This document shows, piece by piece, positions 21,249-56,019 of a DNA stretch of 64,000 nt; positions within the stretch are counted from its first letter, which is position 1, and each line of letters opens with the position of its first letter. Both the position numbers and the translations under genes were made by a program. This DNA is from Escherichia phage Killian. Where the stretch lies: the sequence record OQ446694.1; one strand, given 5' to 3'. Under the pieces are notes generated by a model that saw nothing but the letters and a program-made list of their open reading frames with translations, ran no database searches and was not told the DNA's origin.

Positions 21249-21423
21249 GGAGTTTAATTTCCTTAGCAACTGAACTAAATACAGCACGATCACAAATCAT
21301 CTGTTTATGTAACTTGAGTATAAGATAATAAACTTCAAAGCCGTTTACATAAGTAACACGAACAACATTACCATTAATAAAATAATACTGTCCCTTTTTA
21401 ATTTCTTTATCAACCACAACCAT
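21241..21423 (-). CDS. hypothetical small protein
   Basis: 60 aa ORF directly downstream of an early promoter. Confidence 0.4.
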   Translation of the reverse strand: MVVVDKEIKKGQYYFINGNVVRVTYVNGFEVYYLILKLHKQMICDRAVFSSVAKEIKLHG

Positions 21424-21449
21424 ATCAATTCCTCAAAGGCAATTCATGT

Positions 21450-21486
21450 GTTAATAATACCACAGTTTGAACTTCTTGTAAACAAC
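21450..21486 (-). promoter_or_regulatory. T4-type early promoter (-35 GTTTACA, -10 TATTAT)
   Basis: sigma70-like hexamers at 17 nt spacing upstream of ORF 21241..21423. Confidence 0.55.
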
Positions 21487-21580
21487 TTTGTGAAAATTAT
21501 TTTAGGGAACGATAAGAAGGGAACGATAGTTAGAATGGTAATATACAGAATGTGAGAAAGAAAGGCCCAGAGGGCCCATC

Positions 21581-21889
21581 TTAGTCTTCTATGATATCTC
21601 TATCATATCCAAGTGAAATGAGAGTTTCTTTGAAGTGTTTAATGTTCTTTTGTCTAGAATCATTGATGAAAATGACTGGATAACGAATGTTAAGAGATGT
21701 GAATCCAGCGCGTTTAGCAAGAGATACAATCAGTGGACGATCATACTCAATCTTACCATTATTTGTAAGAACTTTATAGAAAGTAAAAGGAGCATTGAGC
21801 TCCTTTAGAAGTTTTGTAACTGATTGACATCCAGGACAACGACCTACTTCATCTGGAATTCCATAGACTTCAATCTTGTTTTGTTTCAC
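21581..21889 (-). CDS. nrdH: NrdH-like glutaredoxin
   Basis: 102 aa; CPGC redox motif. Confidence 0.75.
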   Translation of the reverse strand: MKQNKIEVYGIPDEVGRCPGCQSVTKLLKELNAPFTFYKVLTNNGKIEYDRPLIVSLAKRAGFTSLNIRYPVIFINDSRQKNIKHFKETLISLGYDRDIIED

Positions 21890-21891
21890 AA

Positions 21892-22104
21892 CTATTCCTT
21901 ACTAAGAGCAGCATTCAGCTTATTAGTAATTTTATCCAGACGCTCATTGAACTCGCTAGAAGATAGTCCTTTTTCTGGAGAAATTAAGCTAATCACGAAA
22001 AATATAGCAATAAAAGGAATAAGAAAAATAGCACCAACTGCCATAAACAAAAAGAACGTTACAGTTGTAAGAAAATCAGCTAAACCTTTACGAAATTTAT
22101 ACAT
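21892..22104 (-). CDS. small membrane protein
   Basis: 70 aa with one hydrophobic helix. Confidence 0.4.
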   Translation of the reverse strand: MYKFRKGLADFLTTVTFFLFMAVGAIFLIPFIAIFFVISLISPEKGLSSSEFNERLDKITNKLNAALSKE

Positions 22105-22219
22105 ATTTTACCCTTAATTGATTAACCAAGCATTGATAAGCACTAAACTATATTGTGAATAAAATTCTGGACCAAAATGAAAAATCATATCATTTATAGT
22201 GTCCATAATATAATTCAAT

Positions 22220-22690
22220 TTAATCATGTTTCCACACCCCATCGGTATTTGACCAAAGTCGCTGATTATCTGATCCTCGCCACAGCTTTTTGGTCGGAAG
22301 ATTTTTCTCATACTTCCCATCAATAATAACATCAACATATTTAAGCATTTCTAGTTGTTTAATATCCTCAAACTTATATCCTGTCCACAACCAAATGCTT
22401 TTATTTGGATAAAGATTTTTTACTGTTTGAACAATGCAATGAACAACATCTCGGTTATCAGGATAGAGAGGGTCTCCTCCAGTTATAGTTAATCCTTCTA
22501 TATAATCATTATTCAAACATTCAATTAATTGTTCCAGTGTTTCACCAGTGAATGGAACGCCATTTCTAGCATTCCACGTTGATTTATTATAACACCCTTC
22601 GCATTTATGCAAACAACCTGTAACGAAAAGAACGACCCTGCATCCAGGGCCATTCACAAAATCGCAGGGATAAAATCTATCGTAATTCAT
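22220..22690 (-). CDS. nrdG: anaerobic ribonucleotide reductase activating protein NrdG (radical SAM)
   Basis: 156 aa; CxxxCxxC cluster motif CLHKCEGC. Confidence 0.9.
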   Translation of the reverse strand: MNYDRFYPCDFVNGPGCRVVLFVTGCLHKCEGCYNKSTWNARNGVPFTGETLEQLIECLNNDYIEGLTITGGDPLYPDNRDVVHCIVQTVKNLYPNKSIWLWTGYKFEDIKQLEMLKYVDVIIDGKYEKNLPTKKLWRGSDNQRLWSNTDGVWKHD

Positions 22691-24504
22691 TGGTGTTTAA
22701 CCCTATGCATGATTTCTTTATTTTTGCCGAGATTAAATCCGCGTTCATTCGGATTTCCCAAATAACCACAAGTTCTTCTTATTGTGTTCATCTTTTTAGG
22801 ATCAGTTTCTCCACAAATAGAACAAACAAACCCGTTTTCAGTAGGAGTCATTTCATGGGTACTTCCGCATGTAAAACATTTATCTACTGGCATATTAACA
22901 CCAAAATAATCTAAATGTTGTGCAGCATAATCCCATACAGCCTCAAGACCTTTTAGGTTATTTTTCATATCAGGAAGTTCAACATAAGAAATGTGACCAC
23001 CTGTCGCAATGAAATGATATGGGGCTTCGCGAGAAATCTTTTCAAATGGAGTAATATTTTCTTCTACCGAAACGTGGAAACTGTTAGTGTACCAGCCTTT
23101 ATCGGTAACATCTTTTACACTTCCATATTTTTCGGTATCAAGTTTACAGAAGCGATAGCACAGGTTTTCAGCAGGTGTAGAATACAAACTAAAAGCAAAA
23201 CCGGTTCTTTCAGTCCACTGCTTAAGATGAGCATTCATTTTAGTTAAAATTTCTTGTCCAATATCACGACCGACAAGAATATTCAATTCGTGAATACCAA
23301 TGTATCCTAGGGACACTGAACTTCTACCGTTTTTAAATAACTCAATTATATCGTCATCAGGTTTAAGACGAACCCCGAATGCACCTTCTTGATAAAGAAT
23401 AGGAGCAACAGTCGCTTTAACTCCTTTTAAGGAACTAATTCTACACATCAAAGCTTCAAAACACAAATCCATTCGTTCATTGAACAATTCAGCAAATTTC
23501 TGTTCATTGAACTGTGTTCCAATATAAGAATCTAGTGCAATGCGAGGAAGATTCAGTGTTACAACACCAAGATTATTACGTCCATCAAGAATTTCATTAC
23601 CAGTCGAATCTTTCCATACACCCAAGAAACTACGACAACCCATTGGAGAAACAGGAATAGATGAACCGGTGATAGCTTTATTGTTCTTAGCTGAAATAAT
23701 ATCAGGATACATTCTTTTGCTTGCACACTCTAGAGCAAGCTGCTTAATATCATAGTTTGGATCGTCTTTATAAAGATTAACACCTTCTTCAACGAACATA
23801 ACAAGCTTAGGGAAAATAGGAGTTATCCCATCACGACCAAGACCTTTAATACGATTTTTCAGAATTGCTTTCTGAATCATTCGTTCAGTCCAGTCAGTTC
23901 CCGTACCAAATGTAATTGTTACAAAAGGCGTTTGTCCGTTTGAACTAAAGAGAGTATTTACTTCATATTCATAAGCTTGGAATGCATCGTATACGTCTTT
24001 TTCTGTTTTAGACTGGGCGTAATTCAACGCATCAGCGATTTGCCATTTTTCTGCGTCCTCAATATGTTTTGCGTAGGTGCGTTTAACATAAGGAGAAAGG
24101 ACTTTATCTACATTCGCAAAAGTCGTTCCGCCATATTGATGGGAAGCAACCTGCGCAGTAATTTGTGCCATAATTGCAGTAGCAACGCCGATTGATTTAG
24201 GAGTTTCAATCTGCGCATTACCGAGCTTAAATCCATTCTCAAGCATTCCTTTTAAATCGACTAAACAGCAATTAGTAAAAGGCAATGATATACTGTAATC
24301 TAAATCATGAAAATGAATTAATCCAACATTATGTGCATTTACAATATGACTTGGAAGAATACGACAAGCGATATGTTTAGAAACAATACCGGCCATTAAA
24401 TCTCTTTTTGTTGGAAAGACACGAGAATCTTTGTTGGCGTTTTCGGTATTTAATTCTTTATCTTTATTTGAAATAAAATTTAAAACATCTTTCTCTAAAG
24501 ACAT
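22687..24504 (-). CDS. nrdD: anaerobic ribonucleoside-triphosphate reductase NrdD
   Basis: 605 aa uninterrupted; C-terminal glycyl radical motif RRTCGYLG and Zn-ribbon cysteines. Confidence 0.95.
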   Translation of the reverse strand: MSLEKDVLNFISNKDKELNTENANKDSRVFPTKRDLMAGIVSKHIACRILPSHIVNAHNVGLIHFHDLDYSISLPFTNCCLVDLKGMLENGFKLGNAQIETPKSIGVATAIMAQITAQVASHQYGGTTFANVDKVLSPYVKRTYAKHIEDAEKWQIADALNYAQSKTEKDVYDAFQAYEYEVNTLFSSNGQTPFVTITFGTGTDWTERMIQKAILKNRIKGLGRDGITPIFPKLVMFVEEGVNLYKDDPNYDIKQLALECASKRMYPDIISAKNNKAITGSSIPVSPMGCRSFLGVWKDSTGNEILDGRNNLGVVTLNLPRIALDSYIGTQFNEQKFAELFNERMDLCFEALMCRISSLKGVKATVAPILYQEGAFGVRLKPDDDIIELFKNGRSSVSLGYIGIHELNILVGRDIGQEILTKMNAHLKQWTERTGFAFSLYSTPAENLCYRFCKLDTEKYGSVKDVTDKGWYTNSFHVSVEENITPFEKISREAPYHFIATGGHISYVELPDMKNNLKGLEAVWDYAAQHLDYFGVNMPVDKCFTCGSTHEMTPTENGFVCSICGETDPKKMNTIRRTCGYLGNPNERGFNLGKNKEIMHRVKHQ

Positions 24505-25316
24505 AATTCTAATTTATCCTTTTGAAATTCTTCGTCTAAATATGGGTTCCAACCCATTTTAAACCTTTTGATGAAATTATCAATTCTAAATTTCGGTAAG
24601 TTTAAATCCGCAAAAATAGATGATTTACTTTTAAAATCTGGACCTAAATAATCATATAAAATTTCTGCGTATTTTAACCATAATATACAAGTACCAGATT
24701 TAATTGCTCTCGGAGTTTTCCAAGGTTTTACACCATACATCGGATTTCCACTTCCTTTATGCCTGATAGAAGATGAAATTCCAATTTTAATTTTAGCTTC
24801 CTTTGTATGCGAAAATCCACGATGCGGATTTTCTTTCCAGTATTTTTTAGAAGCTTCTGATATTTTCTTTCTGGCTAAATTAGTATGATGCTTTCCATAA
24901 AATCCATGATTTTTGCCTTTATTACGATTTCTTTTAATCATGGTTATTGATTGCTTTTCTCTAGTTTCTTTAGAAGGAGAAATACCATATGTCGTAAATT
25001 TGCCATCAGCATATGCTAAATTAAAATACTCTTTATTCCATACATCTTTTTCTATATTCTTTTGAAATTCAGCTTCAATGCTAGTTATTTGTTCATCTCC
25101 GACTAATTGAAAATATAATATTTCAACTTTCGGCGTTTCTTTCAACAGGGCTTTTTGAAATTCGGAAGATGACGAAGACGAATAATAAAATTTACCATTT
25201 TTATCAATAATATTCGTTCCGTCAAAAGTGCAATTGGTTTTACTTCCAATATAATAATATGGTGGGGTTTTAGCATTAATTCTACTAATAAATGATAGTT
25301 TATATACTACATTCAT
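24495..25316 (-). CDS. freestanding homing endonuclease-like protein (GIY-YIG-like N-terminus, NUMOD-type repeats)
   Basis: 273 aa; YYIGS motif; repeated NHGFYG/NPMYG motifs; between nrdD and 49. Confidence 0.55.
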   Translation of the reverse strand: MNVVYKLSFISRINAKTPPYYYIGSKTNCTFDGTNIIDKNGKFYYSSSSSSEFQKALLKETPKVEILYFQLVGDEQITSIEAEFQKNIEKDVWNKEYFNLAYADGKFTTYGISPSKETREKQSITMIKRNRNKGKNHGFYGKHHTNLARKKISEASKKYWKENPHRGFSHTKEAKIKIGISSSIRHKGSGNPMYGVKPWKTPRAIKSGTCILWLKYAEILYDYLGPDFKSKSSIFADLNLPKFRIDNFIKRFKMGWNPYLDEEFQKDKLELCL

Positions 25317-25786
25317 TTTAAACTCTTTCTAAGCTGCTTCTTAAATGAAGCTATTAATTGTGTTTTAGTGTCAGATTCATTATATTCAAATCCTCTTTGA
25401 AGCATCTCAGCCATCATTTCCTCTTTTCCTAAACGAGAAAATTCCTTTGATTTATCTCCAACGAAGTTAGGGTGAATATTATTTTGGGTGTAATCGGATT
25501 TTAAATAAGTAAGTAAATTTTCTAACCATTCAAGATAATCAACGCCTTGTCCCTTTAAGCCAGAACGATTAAATTTGTGTTTCATTTGACCTTCCGCTGC
25601 ATTGCAAAGATTACAGAGCAATCCACGTACCTTTCCTGCTTTTGGTCCATTTAATTCATGGTCATGGTCGAGGTGATTAGCTTGAACATCAGGATTTAGT
25701 TCTCGTTGGCAAATTAAGCATTTACCGTTTTGTGCATTATAAAATTTTTGTTTTTCTTCTTTGTATAATTTGCCAGTCAATAACAT
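25313..25786 (-). CDS. 49: endonuclease VII gp49 (Holliday junction resolvase)
   Basis: 157 aa; Zn-binding cysteines and HLDHDHELN His-Me finger. Confidence 0.9.
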   Translation of the reverse strand: MLLTGKLYKEEKQKFYNAQNGKCLICQRELNPDVQANHLDHDHELNGPKAGKVRGLLCNLCNAAEGQMKHKFNRSGLKGQGVDYLEWLENLLTYLKSDYTQNNIHPNFVGDKSKEFSRLGKEEMMAEMLQRGFEYNESDTKTQLIASFKKQLRKSLK

Positions 25787-27419: not shown

Positions 27420-27710
27420 TTATTCCTTAATTCCTAGTACTTGTTTAAAAGTCTCGTCGTAATCAAGACTTTGGCCCGTTTGTTCTTTATGTTTGTATAT
27501 AATATCACTTACTTCTGATAGCATATTTTTATATGAACGGGTTAAAGCAGATTTAAGCACGCTGTATCTATCAGGAAATTTACCATGTTCATTATAATAA
27601 GCTATTGCTAATTCACGGACTGCCTTTTCAGCAGTCTCCATATATTCTTTACGCTTGGTCATTTTCTTCTCGGTTAAATCGGTGTTTGCAATGACGACAT
27701 TTATATTCAA
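27420..27710 (-). CDS. hypothetical protein (start uncertain, possibly internal Met near 27638)
   Basis: 96 aa ORF overlapping the next ORF by 62 nt. Confidence 0.4.
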
Positions 27711-27966
27711 GCTCTGGTTTACGCCAGTTAATCAATTGGACCTGTTCAGTACCACATTTTGGGCAGTTCGGAACATTCTTAGAAGCCCTTTCGCGACGTT
27801 CAACCATAGCCATAATGGCATCCCAAGCTGGAGGTTTAAAATCTAAATCGTCACAACCATGAATCTTTCCACGCATTTCCAGATCGTCTTCTTCACCAGC
27901 CATAATAATTTTAATTAGACTGGAATTACTTGAAGCTGCAATATCTTCTAATAAGCGCTTTTTCAT
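27649..27966 (-). CDS. Zn-ribbon protein
   Basis: 105 aa; CPKC...CRHC four-cysteine ribbon. Confidence 0.5.
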
Positions 27967-28892
27967 TTCAATACCTCAATAGCATTACGTAAACCATTTG
28001 CTTTTGCATTAAGAGCTTTTAACAATTTGGTGTGCTCTTCAATCTGTTTTTCAACTTCAATTAAACGTGTATTAAGATATTCGCGTTCTTCACTCAGGTT
28101 ATCAATCTTTTCTACTTTAGGTTCTTTTACAACTGGCTTATATGTATTAGGGTTCTTCAGTTTAATTAGAATGCGTGAACTGTACAGCATTGAACCATTA
28201 TCTTCGGTTTCGTCATACATTTCAACTACGTCCATCATCTCCACCATCGTGCAGAGTTTATAAGACAACGAACGAATAGTTTTGTTGTGCTTATTAATTT
28301 CTCTAGCTGTCATGGTGCCGAGATTACGTGAGTAATAATAAGGAACCTGGATATTAATTAATACTGATGAACCACCTGGCTTGTGTGTTACTTCATCAGC
28401 AATAACCCAGTCCTTAACATGAACTGTATTTGTACGGTCATCACCTGCAGTAAATAGTTTACGAGCATGCTTAAAAAGCATATTCACTTGGTCATTGAAT
28501 TGACAAGCAAATTTATCAGCAAATTTAGTTTCAGGAATGGTAGATAACCAATCAGCCAAATGGGTCTTTTTAACATCGTTAACAATAGTAAATTCAACCA
28601 AATCAGTTATAGATGTCTCAGATTTAATAAAGCTCGGCTTCATAAAGTTTTTAATGTTATCACGAGCTATCACAGAAGATAGTAATCGGGAACGTTTGAA
28701 CCACTCTAGCAAAGAACCAAGAGAATGTGAATACGCATTTTGTGTATCTTTACAAATATGGTTTTCCCATCCAATATAGTCTAAAAAATCACGAAGAATA
28801 TTATTGATTACTGCTCTGTGTCCTATCTGATAATTACGATGTTTAGTAATAAGACTGTCAAAATAATCAATATAATGTTTACGAGTTTTCAT
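27963..28892 (-). CDS. uncharacterised protein with C-terminal coiled coil (array member A)
   Basis: 309 aa; heptad-rich C-terminus. Confidence 0.5.
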   Translation of the reverse strand: MKTRKHYIDYFDSLITKHRNYQIGHRAVINNILRDFLDYIGWENHICKDTQNAYSHSLGSLLEWFKRSRLLSSVIARDNIKNFMKPSFIKSETSITDLVEFTIVNDVKKTHLADWLSTIPETKFADKFACQFNDQVNMLFKHARKLFTAGDDRTNTVHVKDWVIADEVTHKPGGSSVLINIQVPYYYSRNLGTMTAREINKHNKTIRSLSYKLCTMVEMMDVVEMYDETEDNGSMLYSSRILIKLKNPNTYKPVVKEPKVEKIDNLSEEREYLNTRLIEVEKQIEEHTKLLKALNAKANGLRNAIEVLK

Positions 28893-42979: not shown

Positions 42980-43245
42980 TAATATTTTTCCTCTGGTTGG
43001 AACACAGCACGACAAGCCCACATACTGGCTTCTTTGAGTTTCGTTTTAGCAATAGTTAACTGATCAAGACTTTCAGCATAATTCTTCGCGAATTCACAGT
43101 CTTCACAATTATCTAGCGCTTCCCAGAATTCATCATATAAAGCATCAAAGATAAGTCCTAAACGAACTTCAGCATCTTTGATAGCATTCACTTTACTGAT
43201 TTTATCGTCAGTATGTGGCTTATAACCTTTAATGTCTTCAATCAT
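42979..43245 (-). CDS. candidate Acb2-like cyclic-oligonucleotide sponge (vs.4 position)
   Basis: 88 aa; second ORF after regB, as T4 vs.4; assignment by position and size only. Confidence 0.4.
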
Positions 43246-43459
43246 ATTTTACTTCCTCACCTGTTCCCAAATCGTATTCAACTAAACGAATAGGTTCATG
43301 AATGCCATATCCTTGAACAGAAATTTCTGTCGTAGGATAAATTCCATTAATATCACCCATGTTCCACGCTTCATTAAATTGCTGTTCGCCTGAATTACTA
43401 AACCACTCGGCGAAAGCATTTAGCACATCTTCAGAACCTTCAATAATTATCTTTGCCAT
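43238..43459 (-). CDS. hypothetical small acidic protein (vs.5 position)
   Basis: 73 aa ORF. Confidence 0.4.
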   Translation of the reverse strand: MAKIIIEGSEDVLNAFAEWFSNSGEQQFNEAWNMGDINGIYPTTEISVQGYGIHEPIRLVEYDLGTGEEVKYD

Positions 43460-43833
43460 TACAAACTCTCAGTAAAGGTACGAGCAATAACGTCGCGTTG
43501 CTGCTCCGGAGTCAGAGAGTTAAAGCGAACTGCGTATCCGGATACACGGATGGTCAGCTGCGGATATTTTTCCGGATGCTTAACTGCATCTTCCAGAGTT
43601 TCGCGACGCAGAACGTTTACGTTCAGGTGTTGACCACCCTCGATTTTAACTGTAGGTTGTGTTTCAATTTCAATTTCACGGGCATGCAAACCATAGAAAA
43701 TTTCTGGGTCTACAAAAGAGTCCTCTTTAAAGGTTTTAGAGACAATAATTCGTGCTTGAATACCATCTTCAAAATAAATAGTACCTTTATGTGTGCCTTC
43801 AAGAATTTGATATGCTTTCATATACCCTCTCAA
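43459..43833 (-). CDS. autonomous glycyl radical cofactor GrcA/YfiD-like protein
   Basis: 124 aa; C-terminal [17 protein letters not shown] glycyl radical motif. Confidence 0.8.
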
Positions 43834-44210
43834 TTAGAAAATAAATTTATCCAAGATTGCTCTTTAATTAAAAATGGCTCAGAATCATATGCCATCAAAC
43901 TTTGGGTGATTAGTCCTTTAAAAGGTCCATCAATAAATTCCATGGTAAAATATGGAATTTTATTCATTAATCTTGCATTAGGAGCAGTGCACAAAACTCT
44001 GCATCCTTTGAATACGCCTTTTTGTAATTTGTATTGCTTAGGATAAAATTCGCTCAAGACGTTGTTATTTGCCAAAATTTCAAAATGATTCACCAACTTA
44101 TTTTTAATAGTTTTTGGTGAAAAATAAAGATATTCGAAAAGCTGTGTGTCTGTCATCATTGCATTCCGATTACGAAAAACTGCGGACGAGTAATACCACC
44201 GATGCAGCAT
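43830..44210 (-). CDS. hypothetical protein (vs.7 position; start uncertain)
   Basis: 126 aa ORF overlapping the next ORF. Confidence 0.4.
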
Positions 44211-44698
44211 TTACTATTGCAACAGTATTGTACAGTTTCAATATGAATATCGTAAATTTTATCCATATCAGGAGATTTAACAGGCTCATCGATTATATAC
44301 AGAATTCGAGAAAGCGTTAAACCTCTGAACTTGCTACCTCTATTACCAACAAAACTACGGACAGAATCAGTAAATAAACGGAATCGAATATCATCGCTAG
44401 AATAACGAGAAAATTCTTTTTTAATGTGGTCCGCAGAAATTTTAGCGTAAGATGAAGTATTAGAAAGAACAATAACTGTTCCACCGTCATACAACCAATT
44501 AGCAGCAAAGTTAGTCACAGCAATTGATTTACCGGATTGACGTCCACCATCTAGTCGAAGTGTGCAGTATTCTTTAAATAAATGTGGCGAATCAGGTACA
44601 TAAAATCCACTATTACAAATTTCTTCTACTCTAGCATCAGAATGGTGTGTAAAAGCATTCATCAGGGATAGATAAGGACCAGTTAAAAATGTTCTCAT
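44156..44698 (-). CDS. hypothetical protein (vs.8 position)
   Basis: track ORF 44156..44746 trimmed to MRTFLTG start. Confidence 0.4.
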   Translation of the reverse strand: MRTFLTGPYLSLMNAFTHHSDARVEEICNSGFYVPDSPHLFKEYCTLRLDGGRQSGKSIAVTNFAANWLYDGGTVIVLSNTSSYAKISADHIKKEFSRYSSDDIRFRLFTDSVRSFVGNRGSKFRGLTLSRILYIIDEPVKSPDMDKIYDIHIETVQYCCNSKCCIGGITRPQFFVIGMQ

Positions 44699-44708
44699 TT
44701 TGTTATCT

Positions 44709-45260
44709 CTAAATTTGGGCCATTCCATGGCGCATGAATTTTCCATTTCTGTATTTACCCATTACCGCACTTGGGCTCGACCTTATTACAGGTTGGCGGG
44801 AATCCCTCATAGAATCATGAGGTCCAGCTTGTTCCCATGTTATTTGAATGTAAATATTTTTGCCGTAGTATTTATACCAGTGTGGCTTCATTAAAATTTT
44901 TTCATCGAGTCGTTGTTGACTCAACTTAATAGCTGATTTGCATGGGTTATAATCATTTTTCCATTCTGCTGGAATATCGCTGATGTCAGGAACTTCAGTA
45001 TCTTTTATACTAAACCCACGTTTTAAGCATTCCATTATAATGTCTGATTGACGCTTTCGCAAAAATTCTAACTTATCGTAAAAGAACGTGACATGACCAG
45101 AACCTAAAATAAACTCGGAAGATATTTTAAAATCTTTAACCCGTTTACCATTTGCCACGTGTTTACGAACTATACCAAAAACACGTGGCAATTCACGGTA
45201 TTCTGCAATTAAATGTTGGTCAGCAAGTTCAGATACTAAAGTCAAATTAATACGAGTCAT
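44709..45260 (-). CDS. denV: endonuclease V DenV (pyrimidine dimer glycosylase), apparently C-terminally extended
   Basis: N-terminal 135 aa [17 protein letters not shown]... matches recalled T4 DenV; frame continues about 45 aa past the expected stop. Confidence 0.85.
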
Positions 45261-53759: not shown

Positions 53760-54050
53760 TCACCACGCTGCGTTAATGTAAGTATATTTAATACATTCAA
53801 GACCCAAAGGATTCTTGAAAATATCATATTCAAGAGGACCTTTTTCTGTTTCAATAAAGAAATCAAAATTTACTGTATTAAATTTACGTTCTTCCTTCAC
53901 TAATTTAACTTGAGAAGATGAACGGTCAATGTAAACCCTTTCAACTTCAAAACATGTTAAAATGCCATAATCATCAATCAAAGCTTTAGCCGCGTCTTGA
54001 TCATATTTATATCCATTTTCAATGGATGATACTTTCGCATAAAGAATCAT
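53760..54050 (-). CDS. hypothetical protein
   Basis: 96 aa ORF. Confidence 0.45.
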   Translation of the reverse strand: MILYAKVSSIENGYKYDQDAAKALIDDYGILTCFEVERVYIDRSSSQVKLVKEERKFNTVNFDFFIETEKGPLEYDIFKNPLGLECIKYTYINAAW

Positions 54051-54052
54051 TA

Positions 54053-54451
54053 TCAGCCTTCATCAACAATAGTGTGAGTATTGGCATTTACGATTTGCCA
54101 CCAGTCAAATCGATTAGAACCCATCGGTTTGTTTTCATTTTCTTTGATAATGTCACGGAGTTCATCTTCAGAGAATGCTTTAGCGATTAAATCGGTATAC
54201 CCACCACGGGGATAATAATTATCACCTGCAAACAAAAGGAAATTTACCTTCCCGGAAGCAACATATGCTTCCTTAGGATACTTGTTTCCTGCGTGGTCAA
54301 CCACTTCAATATAACGGTAAGGAATATCGGTTCTTTCAACCCATTGCCATGCCGCCGCAGGGGAATCGAAAGCATCTACACCTAAACGATTATCTTCATC
54401 TTTAGACGGATTATTTTCGTAATCCGCATATACATAATATTCAACGTTCAT
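54053..54451 (-). CDS. hypothetical protein
   Basis: 132 aa ORF. Confidence 0.45.
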   Translation of the reverse strand: MNVEYYVYADYENNPSKDEDNRLGVDAFDSPAAAWQWVERTDIPYRYIEVVDHAGNKYPKEAYVASGKVNFLLFAGDNYYPRGGYTDLIAKAFSEDELRDIIKENENKPMGSNRFDWWQIVNANTHTIVDEG

Positions 54452-54636
54452 TATTCACCTTTAGAAATTTTATCCATAACGATAGCAATTAAACCAATTA
54501 AAAATGCTACTACAAGTGAAAAAACATTTTCTGCCGTAGTCAATAATCCGCATATAAATCCAACAAACATTGAAAAACTGAAAGCGGAAGCAGAAATTGC
54601 AATAGCAACATTTCGAATTAATTCACAACGTTTCAT
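54451..54636 (-). CDS. small membrane protein
   Basis: track ORF 54451..54777 trimmed to MKRCEL start downstream of a promoter. Confidence 0.4.
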   Translation of the reverse strand: MKRCELIRNVAIAISASAFSFSMFVGFICGLLTTAENVFSLVVAFLIGLIAIVMDKISKGE

Positions 54637-54659
54637 TTTATTCTCCTCAGTAGTTGATA

Positions 54660-54697
54660 GGGTAATAGTATCACTACCCCATCTAAAAGTAAACTTA
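54660..54697 (-). promoter_or_regulatory. T4-type early promoter (IP locus family)
   Basis: TTGATAGGGTAATAGTATCAC...GTAAAC cassette. Confidence 0.5.
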
Positions 54698-54928
54698 TTT
54701 TTTACGAAAAATTGATTTATTTTCTGCTGCCCATTTTTCAATAACTGCAACAGGACCAGTAACAACAATTTTATCACCGTAATCTTCTGCGGCGAGTTGA
54801 CCGAAATTATCTAATGCATCACGAAGAACTCCATGAGGCATTTCACCCATTTTATCTTTCTTGCCGGTGTAAATAAACTCAGCTTTTACATCAGAAGATT
54901 CAGCGATAAACTCTTTGAAAGTTTTCAT
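54695..54928 (-). CDS. internal protein-like (ipI-locus family) with capsid-targeting N-terminus
   Basis: MKTFKEFIAES start (second Met of track ORF 54695..54940). Confidence 0.55.
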   Translation of the reverse strand: MKTFKEFIAESSDVKAEFIYTGKKDKMGEMPHGVLRDALDNFGQLAAEDYGDKIVVTGPVAVIEKWAAENKSIFRKK

Positions 54929-54957
54929 TTTGATTTCCATTTGGTTTTGTTTTGATA

Positions 54958-54994
54958 GGGTAATAGTATCACAGCTAAAACCCTATGTAAACAA
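54958..54994 (-). promoter_or_regulatory. T4-type early promoter (IP locus family)
   Basis: cassette repeated before each IP-like gene. Confidence 0.55.
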
Positions 54995-55004
54995 CTTTGT
55001 GAAA

Positions 55005-55262
55005 TTATTTTAAATCTTCTAATCGTTTCTTCATCTTAGAACCATTCTTAGCGATTTCTCCTGCATCAGAGCATAATGCTAAAAGCGCTTTAACTTTAGT
55101 TTGGTCTCCTTTAAAAGATGAAGGATCGACTGCAGCAGCAAGTTCTTTAATACGAGAGAAAAGACGCTCGGCTTCAGCTAAAGCCATTCCAAGCTTTACT
55201 TCCATACCGTGGGAAGATTCAGTGATAGTAGTTTTTGTAGCAAACTCTTTGAAAGTTTTCAT
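55005..55262 (-). CDS. internal protein-like (ipI-locus family) with capsid-targeting N-terminus
   Basis: 85 aa; MKTFKEFATK N-terminus; own early promoter. Confidence 0.55.
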   Translation of the reverse strand: MKTFKEFATKTTITESSHGMEVKLGMALAEAERLFSRIKELAAAVDPSSFKGDQTKVKALLALCSDAGEIAKNGSKMKKRLEDLK

Positions 55263-55287
55263 TTTATTTTCCTAATTAATTTTGATG

Positions 55288-55324
55288 AGGTAATAGTATC
55301 ACTACTAAAACCCCGTGTAAATAA
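55288..55324 (-). promoter_or_regulatory. T4-type early promoter (IP locus family)
   Basis: cassette repeated before each IP-like gene. Confidence 0.55.
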
Positions 55325-55334
55325 CTTTGTGAAA

Positions 55335-56019
<685 letters not shown>

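Follow-up and report, generated by a model that had tools for sequence, protein, structure and literature searches.

Genes at the two loci

The window analysed here, a 64,000-nucleotide stretch of Escherichia phage Killian (sequence record OQ446694.1), carries two separate sets of low-oxygen genes, each of which is already known, and their features are collected in Table 1. Both loci are approximately 97% identical at the nucleotide level to many Tequatrovirus genomes and keep the gene order of T4, namely nrdH-55.8-nrdG-nrdD-49 in the first and regB...vs.6...denV in the second. Judged by its sequence, the phage is a T4-like coliphage belonging to Tequatrovirus. An earlier, sequence-only reading of this DNA had named nrdH, nrdG and nrdD, and all three are confirmed on the minus strand, as given in the table. 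The same reading had described a GrcA-like gene elsewhere in the window together with this anaerobic module; the two loci are 19 kb from each other and make up no physical module.

Table 1. Positions of the genes and of the host-like tract (window coordinates).
Feature	Position	Strand	Description
nrdH	21581..21889	(-)	102 aa; glutaredoxin-like redoxin; CPGC motif
T4 gene 55.8 ortholog	21892..22104	(-)	70 aa predicted membrane protein, between nrdH and nrdG
nrdG	22220..22690	(-)	156 aa; radical-SAM activase of NrdD
nrdD	22687..24504	(-)	605 aa class III (anaerobic) ribonucleoside-triphosphate reductase; intron-less; radical glycine G580
Free-standing homing endonuclease gene	24495..25316	(-)	273 aa, between gene 49 and nrdD
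vs.6 (Y06I) ortholog	43459..43821	(-)	120 aa autonomous glycyl radical cofactor of the GrcA type; radical glycine G95, within the RVSGYAV loop
Tract in vs.6, probably host-derived	43459..43641	(-)	EGGQHLNV codons to stop codon; 94.5-95.6% nucleotide identity to E. coli grcA

The anaerobic reductase genes

The product of nrdD covers the whole of the Pfam NRDD model (1-562 of 562, E=3e-170), scores 896 bits against NCBIfam PRK09263, for which the cut-off is 657, and aligns from end to end (1-605) with the T4 NrdD structure 1H78. The catalytic residues G580, C79 and C290 are all kept, and the zinc cysteines C543, C546, C561 and C564 are present. In other words, every feature that defines a class III ribonucleotide reductase is found in this protein, i.e. 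a full-length match above the cut-offs, a radical glycine near the C-terminus, the active-site cysteines and the Cys4 zinc site. Compared with the T4 proteins (PDB 1H78, 1HK8), NrdD is approximately 99% identical from about residue 65 to residue 605 and retains every catalytic and zinc residue, whereas its first 60 or so residues, and with them the 5' 540 nt or so of the gene, are much more diverged (84.5% nucleotide identity as opposed to 95%). NrdG and NrdH are likewise of the T4 type. In particular, the nrdG product matches Pfam Fer4_12 (E=1.4e-48), reaches 198 bits against the NCBIfam NrdG model TIGR02491 (equivalog level, cut-off 126) and carries the CxxxCxxC iron-sulfur motif of radical-SAM activases as C26-x3-C30-x2-C33. 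The ATG of nrdG overlaps the stop codon of nrdD (ATGA).

The case of nrdH is different in kind. Its product is 100% identical to T4 NrdH and matches a PHROG thioredoxin domain (E=3.5e-16), but the Pfam Glutaredoxin match is marginal (24.0 bits against a cut-off of 22.9), and no NCBIfam family, the curated bacterial NrdH-redoxin included, was found for it at E<=0.001. Its name is the T4 name backed by complete identity, and does not denote a demonstrated equivalog of bacterial NrdH, the electron donor of class Ib RNR. What is more, in the majority of characterised class III RNRs it is formate, and no redoxin, that supplies both reducing equivalents, and T4 NrdD has been proposed to have a formate site (PMC4493059). 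That the three genes together form the anaerobic system, as had been suggested, is borne out for nrdG and nrdD, which pass curated cut-offs and retain their catalytic residues, while nrdH is tied to the reductase by position only.

The phage nrdD is a single continuous frame of 605 codons. Namely, in BLASTN comparison with T4, the T4 exons are joined in the phage at window position 23966/23969 with nothing between them, and the T4 intron of approximately 1035 nt is absent at about 23967/23968; the interruption of about 1 kb that a T4-type group I intron with I-TevII would make was not found within the gene. The sequence-only reading was right that, in contrast to T4, nrdD is without an intron, but this is unremarkable: T4 introns have long been known to vary in presence among T-even phages (PMC2988022). 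Two further differences from T4 concern mobile genes: there is no mobC between nrdG and nrdD, and an additional free-standing homing endonuclease gene lies upstream of nrdD, for which BLASTN found no counterpart in T4. Its 273-aa product matches Pfam NUMOD3 (E=6e-7) and PHROG homing-endonuclease families (E=7e-34), and relatives annotate it as 'homing endonuclease'; it is a mobile-element neighbour that stands outside the metabolic function. The 55.8 ortholog matches PHROG 1930 (E=1.2e-35) and sits where it does in T4.

A GrcA-type radical protein encoded by vs.6

The open reading frame at 43459-43833, 124 aa long, matches E. coli GrcA (PDB 6OWR) over residues 26-124 (phmmer, E=5e-42) and the C-terminus of pyruvate formate-lyase (PFL, residues 697-759) over 63 residues (E=5e-26). 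The Pfam Gly_radical domain PF01228 is found in its C-terminal part (E=2.3e-18), PHROG 1209 is matched at E=5e-63, and the final 61 residues are 100% identical to those of E. coli GrcA. The SGY glycine, G95 (G99 in the 124-aa numbering), is conserved and aligns with G102 of GrcA, the point on which the earlier reading had proposed to check the resemblance, and with G734 of PFL. On this evidence, Vs.6 is a spare glycyl-radical domain of the GrcA/YfiD type, and it has the form of one, i.e. a small stand-alone glycyl-radical protein of approximately 14 kDa. That said, against the NCBIfam GrcA equivalog TIGR04365 (IPR011140) it scores 154.6 bits over 20-120, which is less than the cut-off of 170, the shortfall being due to the diverged N-terminal half. 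RefSeq nevertheless gives the T4 ortholog the name GrcA.

While the resemblance to GrcA stands, the length of 124 aa does not. Namely, the TTG at 43833 is a mechanical start of the reading frame, which we reject, and T4 annotation uses the ATG equivalent to 43821. Since the T4 ortholog starts at this ATG and a Shine-Dalgarno sequence, GAGAGGG, lies just upstream of it, Vs.6 probably has 120 aa. A scan for promoters and terminators around the gene gave 15 promoter-like sites where 9.6 were expected, and was uninformative.

The closest relative considered is T4 Vs.6 itself (UniProt Y06I; NP_049730), which is equally long (120 aa), is identical at 118 positions and different at two, and is encoded at the same locus, flanked by vs.5 and vs.7 within the regB-denV region. 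E. coli GrcA/YfiD (PDB 6OWR) is likewise a small stand-alone glycyl-radical domain with the RVSGYAV loop. However, the N-terminal 60 or so residues of Vs.6 resemble it weakly, with identity at third codon positions at the random level in that half, and Vs.6 is 7 residues shorter. It is also encoded by the phage, and would serve a cell that no longer expresses its own genes. Over 1,500 phage records contain the gene, and a similar one is present in T5, an unrelated phage that also has nrdD.

Host-like DNA within vs.6

The two halves of vs.6 differ sharply in their DNA. When the reading frame was compared with 5,426 E. coli genomes using BLASTN, it was matched at positions 193-375 only, and the GC content of this 3' tract is 0.50, as compared with approximately 0.33 in the 5' half and in the flanks. 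A breakpoint test on the mosaic gave chi2 = 76.9, a value that was reached in none of 2000 permutations. The T4 gene is a mosaic of the same kind, phage-like in its 5' half and E. coli-like in its 3' half, and its host-like tract differs from grcA of E. coli K-12 at 4 of 174 nt, as opposed to 9 of 174 in the present phage.

The pattern extends to other phages and follows the host. In E. coli phages, the 3' 175 nt or so of vs.6 are 95-99% identical to E. coli grcA, whereas in Klebsiella phages of the Jiaodavirus type the tract is 98-100% identical to grcA of K. pneumoniae. Within a core of 150 nt, in which the two host genes differ by 11%, identity to E. coli grcA is 96-99.3% in Tequatrovirus (Killian included) and Mosigvirus, while in the remaining phage lineages the identity of the core to either host does not exceed 84%. 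Phages of E. coli and of Klebsiella share one 5' junction, immediately ahead of the EGG codons, and the 5' half before it is phage-like in both. As the tracts match two different hosts, each with the same junction, the comparison implies that the radical domain of vs.6 has recently been replaced from the host at least two times. The reading towards which we lean is that this half is repeatedly overwritten by grcA of the current host through gene conversion, such that the spare part stays an exact fit to the PFL of any species that the phage lineage comes to infect.

Several other accounts of the tract were considered and set aside. Contamination of the assembly does not fit with its presence at the same place, at 95-99% identity, in T4 and in approximately 500 independent phage records. 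Transfer in the opposite direction, from phage to host, disagrees with the fact that the host gene diverges evenly (86.9% identity between E. coli and K. pneumoniae over the whole gene and 89.1% over its 3' part), while it is the phage genes that are mosaic. As for pflB or tdcE as donors, the high-identity matches (94.5-95.6%) fall on grcA and, among the matches listed, tdcE reaches 76.7%. A seemingly longer host tract in Mosigvirus, with a BLAST match from grcA nt 155, is a low-identity extension, and the junction is as in T4.

A known parallel is psbA of cyanophages, a photosynthesis gene with tracts that have been exchanged between the phage copy and the host copy. Both are auxiliary metabolic genes of T4-like phages, and in both the protein is kept matched to the host machinery. 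In vs.6 of enterobacterial phages, however, the tract is the radical domain, 150-175 nt long, of a 'spare part' for repair, and it has been replaced from two different host species at the same junction.

Function of Vs.6

Taken together, our reading is that the phage carries two known gene sets, the class III reductase NrdD/NrdG and Vs.6 as a spare part for host PFL, to which we would assign a probability of roughly 0.8. The biochemistry behind the second part comes from T4. Namely, in the account that PMC8683613 gives of Wagner et al. 2001, T4 Y06I is activated by the host PFL activase and restores PFL cleaved by oxygen, and YfiD undergoes the same activation and rescues PFL in the same way. 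Y06I/Vs.6 is one of only two such spare-part proteins validated so far. The suggestion that the phage copy may repair host glycyl-radical enzymes is in this respect well founded, since repair of PFL is described there as shown in vitro for T4 Y06I, which is 98% identical (PMC8683613).

In the mechanism that we propose, NrdG, with S-adenosylmethionine and its iron-sulfur cluster, would generate the radical at Gly580 of NrdD, and NrdD would then reduce ribonucleoside triphosphates with formate as the reductant. Host PflA, in turn, would put a radical on G95 of Vs.6, and the 14-kDa protein would dock onto host PFL that has been cut by oxygen at G734 and bring its activity back, by analogy with what the T4 protein does in vitro. 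Host gene expression is presumably shut off here, as by T4-type phages, and neither new PFL nor new GrcA would be made; because the infected cell could not make them, a phage-encoded copy of GrcA would be what preserves the activity of the PFL already present when oxygen fluctuates. PFL kept active in this way would sustain acetyl-CoA and ATP, and would also supply formate, the reductant needed by the phage NrdD. Formate that is made by repaired PFL and consumed by NrdD would thus be a plausible functional link between the two loci. That said, the co-occurrence of vs.6 and nrdD in T4-like phages and in T5 may just reflect facultatively anaerobic hosts.

Could Vs.6 be a functionless passenger, a fragment of host grcA re-seeded by recombination with degraded host DNA and of no benefit to the phage? 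The mosaic described above speaks for this, as the 3' half of the gene is nearly pure host DNA, was replaced at least two times from different hosts, and recombination with host DNA does happen at vs.6. However, the 5' half is old and of phage type, with homology that extends across phage genera, and of the approximately 70 phage copies examined, essentially all have an intact reading frame. Moreover, in RB16/RB43-like lineages, in which there was no recent replacement, the radical domain shows 0-2 amino-acid changes as compared with 30-32 nucleotide changes over 58 codons (30 and none, respectively, between an RB16-like phage and E. coli), and is, to go by these counts, under strong purifying selection. 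The 9 changes that separate the Killian copy from E. coli are all synonymous. Given also that PMC8683613 reports the T4 protein Y06I to be biochemically active, we regard the passenger explanation as improbable.

It is a shade less probable still that Vs.6 works against the host, either as a decoy that soaks up PflA or as a PFL-binding competitor that alters carbon flux. Host proteins are often inhibited by T4 early genes, and homology, along with such T4 biochemistry as is summarised in PMC8683613, makes Vs.6 both a substrate of PflA and a PFL-binding domain. Yet, according to the same source, Y06I restored PFL activity in vitro and did not inhibit it. What is more, the whole host domain is exactly conserved, beyond the loop that the activase recognizes, and this fits functional replacement better than a decoy.

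Least probable of all, and very doubtful in our view, is that Vs.6 is a spare domain for the phage's own NrdD, activated by NrdG and replacing the NrdD C-terminus after oxygen cleavage at G580: both proteins have a Pfam Gly_radical domain, from which Nolan et al. 2006 (PMC1524935) drew the looser speculation that the protein might take part in the nucleotide metabolism of the phage, and nrdD and vs.6-like genes do co-occur in T4-like phages and T5, but BLASTP finds no significant similarity between Vs.6 and NrdD (best E=5.9), the glycine lies in RVSGYAV, the motif of PFL and GrcA, and not in the RRTCGYLG of NrdD, the Cys4 zinc site beside the NrdD radical loop is lacking in Vs.6, and the domain is that of host GrcA and PFL (100% identity and E=5e-26, respectively), with DNA that matches host grcA (94.5-95.6%) and not tdcE (76.7%). 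The mention of NrdD as a conceivable repair target is left unsupported by this dissimilarity and by the PFL type of the radical loop.

Returning to Vs.6 as a spare part for PFL, both this protein and the NrdD/NrdG reductase are already known T4 biology, and the sole new point seems to be that the radical-domain part of vs.6 is almost pure host DNA. In the literature that we were able to search, no prior report of the host-like tract was found, and the origin of the 3' part from host DNA appears to be unreported. A radical domain nearly identical to the DNA of the phage's own host serves as a clean and dated example of DNA that passed recently from host to phage, the recipients being lytic T-even phages, by which host DNA is destroyed. 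If the replacement is adaptive, the phage in this way keeps a plug-in part that is matched to the host enzyme.

Finally, the labels that this family carries vary between databases. PHROG 1209 is still listed as 'unknown function', the T5 copy is labelled 'acetyltransferase-related', and many phage records read 'hypothetical' or 'pyruvate formate-lyase', all of which could be corrected.

Identity of the GrcA-like gene

The window belongs to a T4-like coliphage: both 21400-25400, which holds the nrd genes, and the region around 43000-44800 are approximately 97% identical to many Tequatrovirus genomes. In the latter region, the product of the open reading frame at 43459-43833 has matches to E. 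coli GrcA (PDB 6OWR; E=5e-42) and to the 63 residues at the C-terminus of pyruvate formate-lyase (PFL; E=5e-26). The equivalent position in T4, namely the regB-denV interval with vs.5 and vs.7 on the flanks, is that of vs.6, whose RefSeq name is "autonomous glycyl radical cofactor GrcA". The sequence-only reading had proposed a GrcA-like protein of 124 aa; the likeness is borne out, with complete identity to E. coli GrcA over the final 61 residues, while the length is not, since translation most likely starts at the ATG at 43821, behind the ribosome-binding site GAGAGGG, and gives a product of 120 aa, 118/120 of whose residues are those of T4 Vs.6. The SGY glycine, on which that reading had staked the likeness, is conserved, with G95 of Vs.6 aligned to GrcA G102. 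Labels of the family are another matter: PHROG 1209, matched at E=5e-63, is marked "unknown function", the NCBIfam GrcA model gives Vs.6 154.6, just below its cut-off of 170, and phage records vary between hypothetical protein, pyruvate formate-lyase, glycerol dehydratase radical and ribonucleotide reductase subunit. These are annotation gaps.

Coordinates of the genes discussed (window positions)
Gene	Position	Strand	Description
nrdH	21581-21889	minus	ORF, 102 aa
70-aa ORF	21892-22104	minus	ORF, between nrdH and nrdG
nrdG	22220-22690	minus	ORF, 156 aa
nrdD	22687-24504	minus	ORF, 605 aa
273-aa ORF	24495-25316	minus	homing endonuclease: NUMOD3, PHROG homing-endonuclease families
gene 49 (endonuclease VII)	25313-25786	minus	ORF
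vs.6	43459-43821	minus	ORF, 120 aa
vs.8 ortholog	44156-44746
denV	44709-45260		ORF, 183 aa

Function and target of Vs.6

According to a 2021 JBC paper, Wagner et al. 2001 found that E. coli YfiD and T4 Y06I (Vs.6) are both radicalised by PFL activase and both reconstitute oxygen-fragmented PFL, and the same paper counts the two as the sole validated spare-part proteins (PMC8683613). Nolan et al. 2006 found vs.6 conserved in 6/6 genomes of T4-like phages and, as its Pfam domain is common to NrdD, speculated that it might act in nucleotide metabolism (PMC1524935). Because of these two papers, the PFL-repair and the NrdD-linked interpretations have both already been published. The observation of a GrcA-like gene is confirmed and its interpretation was partly right, namely in the repair of PFL as published for the T4 ortholog, while the suggestion that NrdD could be the target is very unlikely to hold.

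How, then, might the vs.6 and nrd loci be connected? PFL yields formate, and host gene expression is shut off when a T4-type phage infects the cell. In most characterised class III ribonucleotide reductases formate is the donor of both reducing equivalents, and T4 NrdD has a proposed formate site (PMC4493059). For these reasons, the phage spare part could keep pre-existing PFL active under fluctuating oxygen, which would maintain the supply of ATP and formate. We consider such a metabolic link more reasonable than repair of the phage's own NrdD by Vs.6, which is very unlikely since BLASTP gives no match between the two proteins (best E=5.9), their radical loops differ (RVSGYAV in Vs.6, RRTCGYLG in NrdD), the NrdD loop is linked to a zinc site, which is absent from Vs.6, and the Vs.6 domain is identical to that of a host protein that fits PFL.

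A host-tracking mosaic

At the DNA level vs.6 is a sharp mosaic of a phage-like 5' half and a host-like 3' tract (43459-43641), which makes up the radical-domain half and consists almost entirely of host DNA. In a search of 5,426 E. coli genomes, positions 193-375 of the ORF at 43459-43833 alone match grcA, at 94.5-95.6% identity, with tdcE at just 76.7%. The GC content is 0.50 in the tract and approximately 0.33 in the 5' half and flanks. In codon windows, third-position identity to E. coli grcA is no better than random in the 5' half, reaches 90-100% over large parts of the 3' half and drops to approximately 70% towards the 3' end. A maximum chi-square test puts the breakpoint 177 nt from the end of vs.6 (chi2 76.9; 0/2000 permutations as high). 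Over the last 174 nt, there are 4 differences from E. coli K-12 grcA in T4 and 9 in the window, all synonymous, as compared with 30 between Salmonella and E. coli grcA.

The comparison of host tracts covered window 43459-43641, L028 (an IMG/VR locus), L175 (a metagenome phage contig) and loci L001, L166, L167, L168 and L176. Tract identity to E. coli grcA is 96-99% in two genera of E. coli phages, Mosigvirus RPN187 and JS09, of the second genus, having tract and junction as in the window. In the Jiaodavirus-type Klebsiella phages compared (Nispero, L028 and L175), the Klebsiella-type residues LLDAVEH replace LEDAVKH, and the 150-nt core shows 98.0-100% identity to a bacterial grcA gene carried by 24 metagenome contigs, the product of which has exactly the sequence of K. 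pneumoniae GrcA (GRCA_KLEP7); over this core the grcA genes of E. coli and K. pneumoniae differ by 11%. The remaining phage lineages reach at most 84% identity to either. What is more, the 5' junction, at the EGG codons, is common to E. coli and Klebsiella phages, and the 5' halves are phage-like and homologous between genera (window and Nispero, 72%). Older copies (RB16/RB43-like) have 30-32 nucleotide changes and just 0-2 amino-acid changes, so the radical domain is under strong constraint.

The simplest reading of these sequences is that the radical domain has been replaced from host to phage at least twice, independently and recently, probably by gene conversion with host DNA fragments, which purifying selection would make possible by maintaining the homology between vs.6 and grcA. 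We found no prior report of a host-like vs.6 tract in the literature searched, and the host-tracking mosaic appears to be new, a lead of modest interest to phage-evolution specialists.

The vs.6-type gene is present in over 1,500 phage records, and also in T4-like, T5-like and jumbo-phage contigs. In particular, T5 (NC_005859, L165), of an unrelated family, encodes the 122-aa GrcA-like protein T5.056 (27656-28024), whose radical domain is approximately 70% nucleotide-identical to E. coli grcA, and the T5 copy is therefore old. The record calls it only "putative acetyltransferase-related protein". T5 also has NrdD (53961-55685); no nrdG annotation was present within the 48 kb inspected. Separately, an E. 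coli-type tract, 97.3% identical to E. coli grcA, is present in PV654520.1 (H79), a 142 kb record labelled "Pseudomonas phage vB_PSGBLB0006" with P. aeruginosa as its host; this record looks like a Tequatrovirus with an unexpected host label.

The nrd locus and denV

The nrdH, nrdG and uninterrupted nrdD genes of the sequence-only reading are present as open reading frames. NrdG and NrdD far exceed curated cut-offs (Pfam, PHROG, NCBIfam), and the alignment of NrdD to the sequence of the T4 NrdD crystal structure spans residues 1-605 (approximately 99% identity from residue ~65 on); G580, C79, C290 and the Cys4 zinc site are kept. The NrdH protein has the same sequence as T4 NrdH (100% identity), barely clears the Pfam Glutaredoxin cut-off and matches none of the curated bacterial NrdH models.

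In T4 the order is nrdH-55.8-nrdG-mobC-nrdD (intron with I-TevII)-49, from which BLASTN of the window against T4 gave four differences. Namely, mobC is absent, and the start codon of nrdG overlaps with the stop codon of nrdD; the nrdD intron (~1035 nt) is absent, with the junction at 23966/23969; T4 has no counterpart of the free-standing homing endonuclease gene that lies between 49 and nrdD; and the adjoining 5' ~540 nt of nrdD (23969-24504) are 84.5% identical to T4, as against 95% for the remainder, as would be expected from endonuclease-driven co-conversion. vB_EcoM_Lutter and fPS-90, among others, share this layout. An intron-less nrdD, correctly noted before as unlike T4, is nevertheless ordinary, since it is established that T4 introns vary in their presence and that seg and mob endonucleases target nrdD/nrdG (PMC2988022).

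Finally, denV is longer than the 138 aa of T4: where T4 DenV ends in YYGKAIYA, the window reads through the stop position into a 45-aa tail that overlaps the following gene, the vs.8 ortholog. This could be a true extension or a sequence error.
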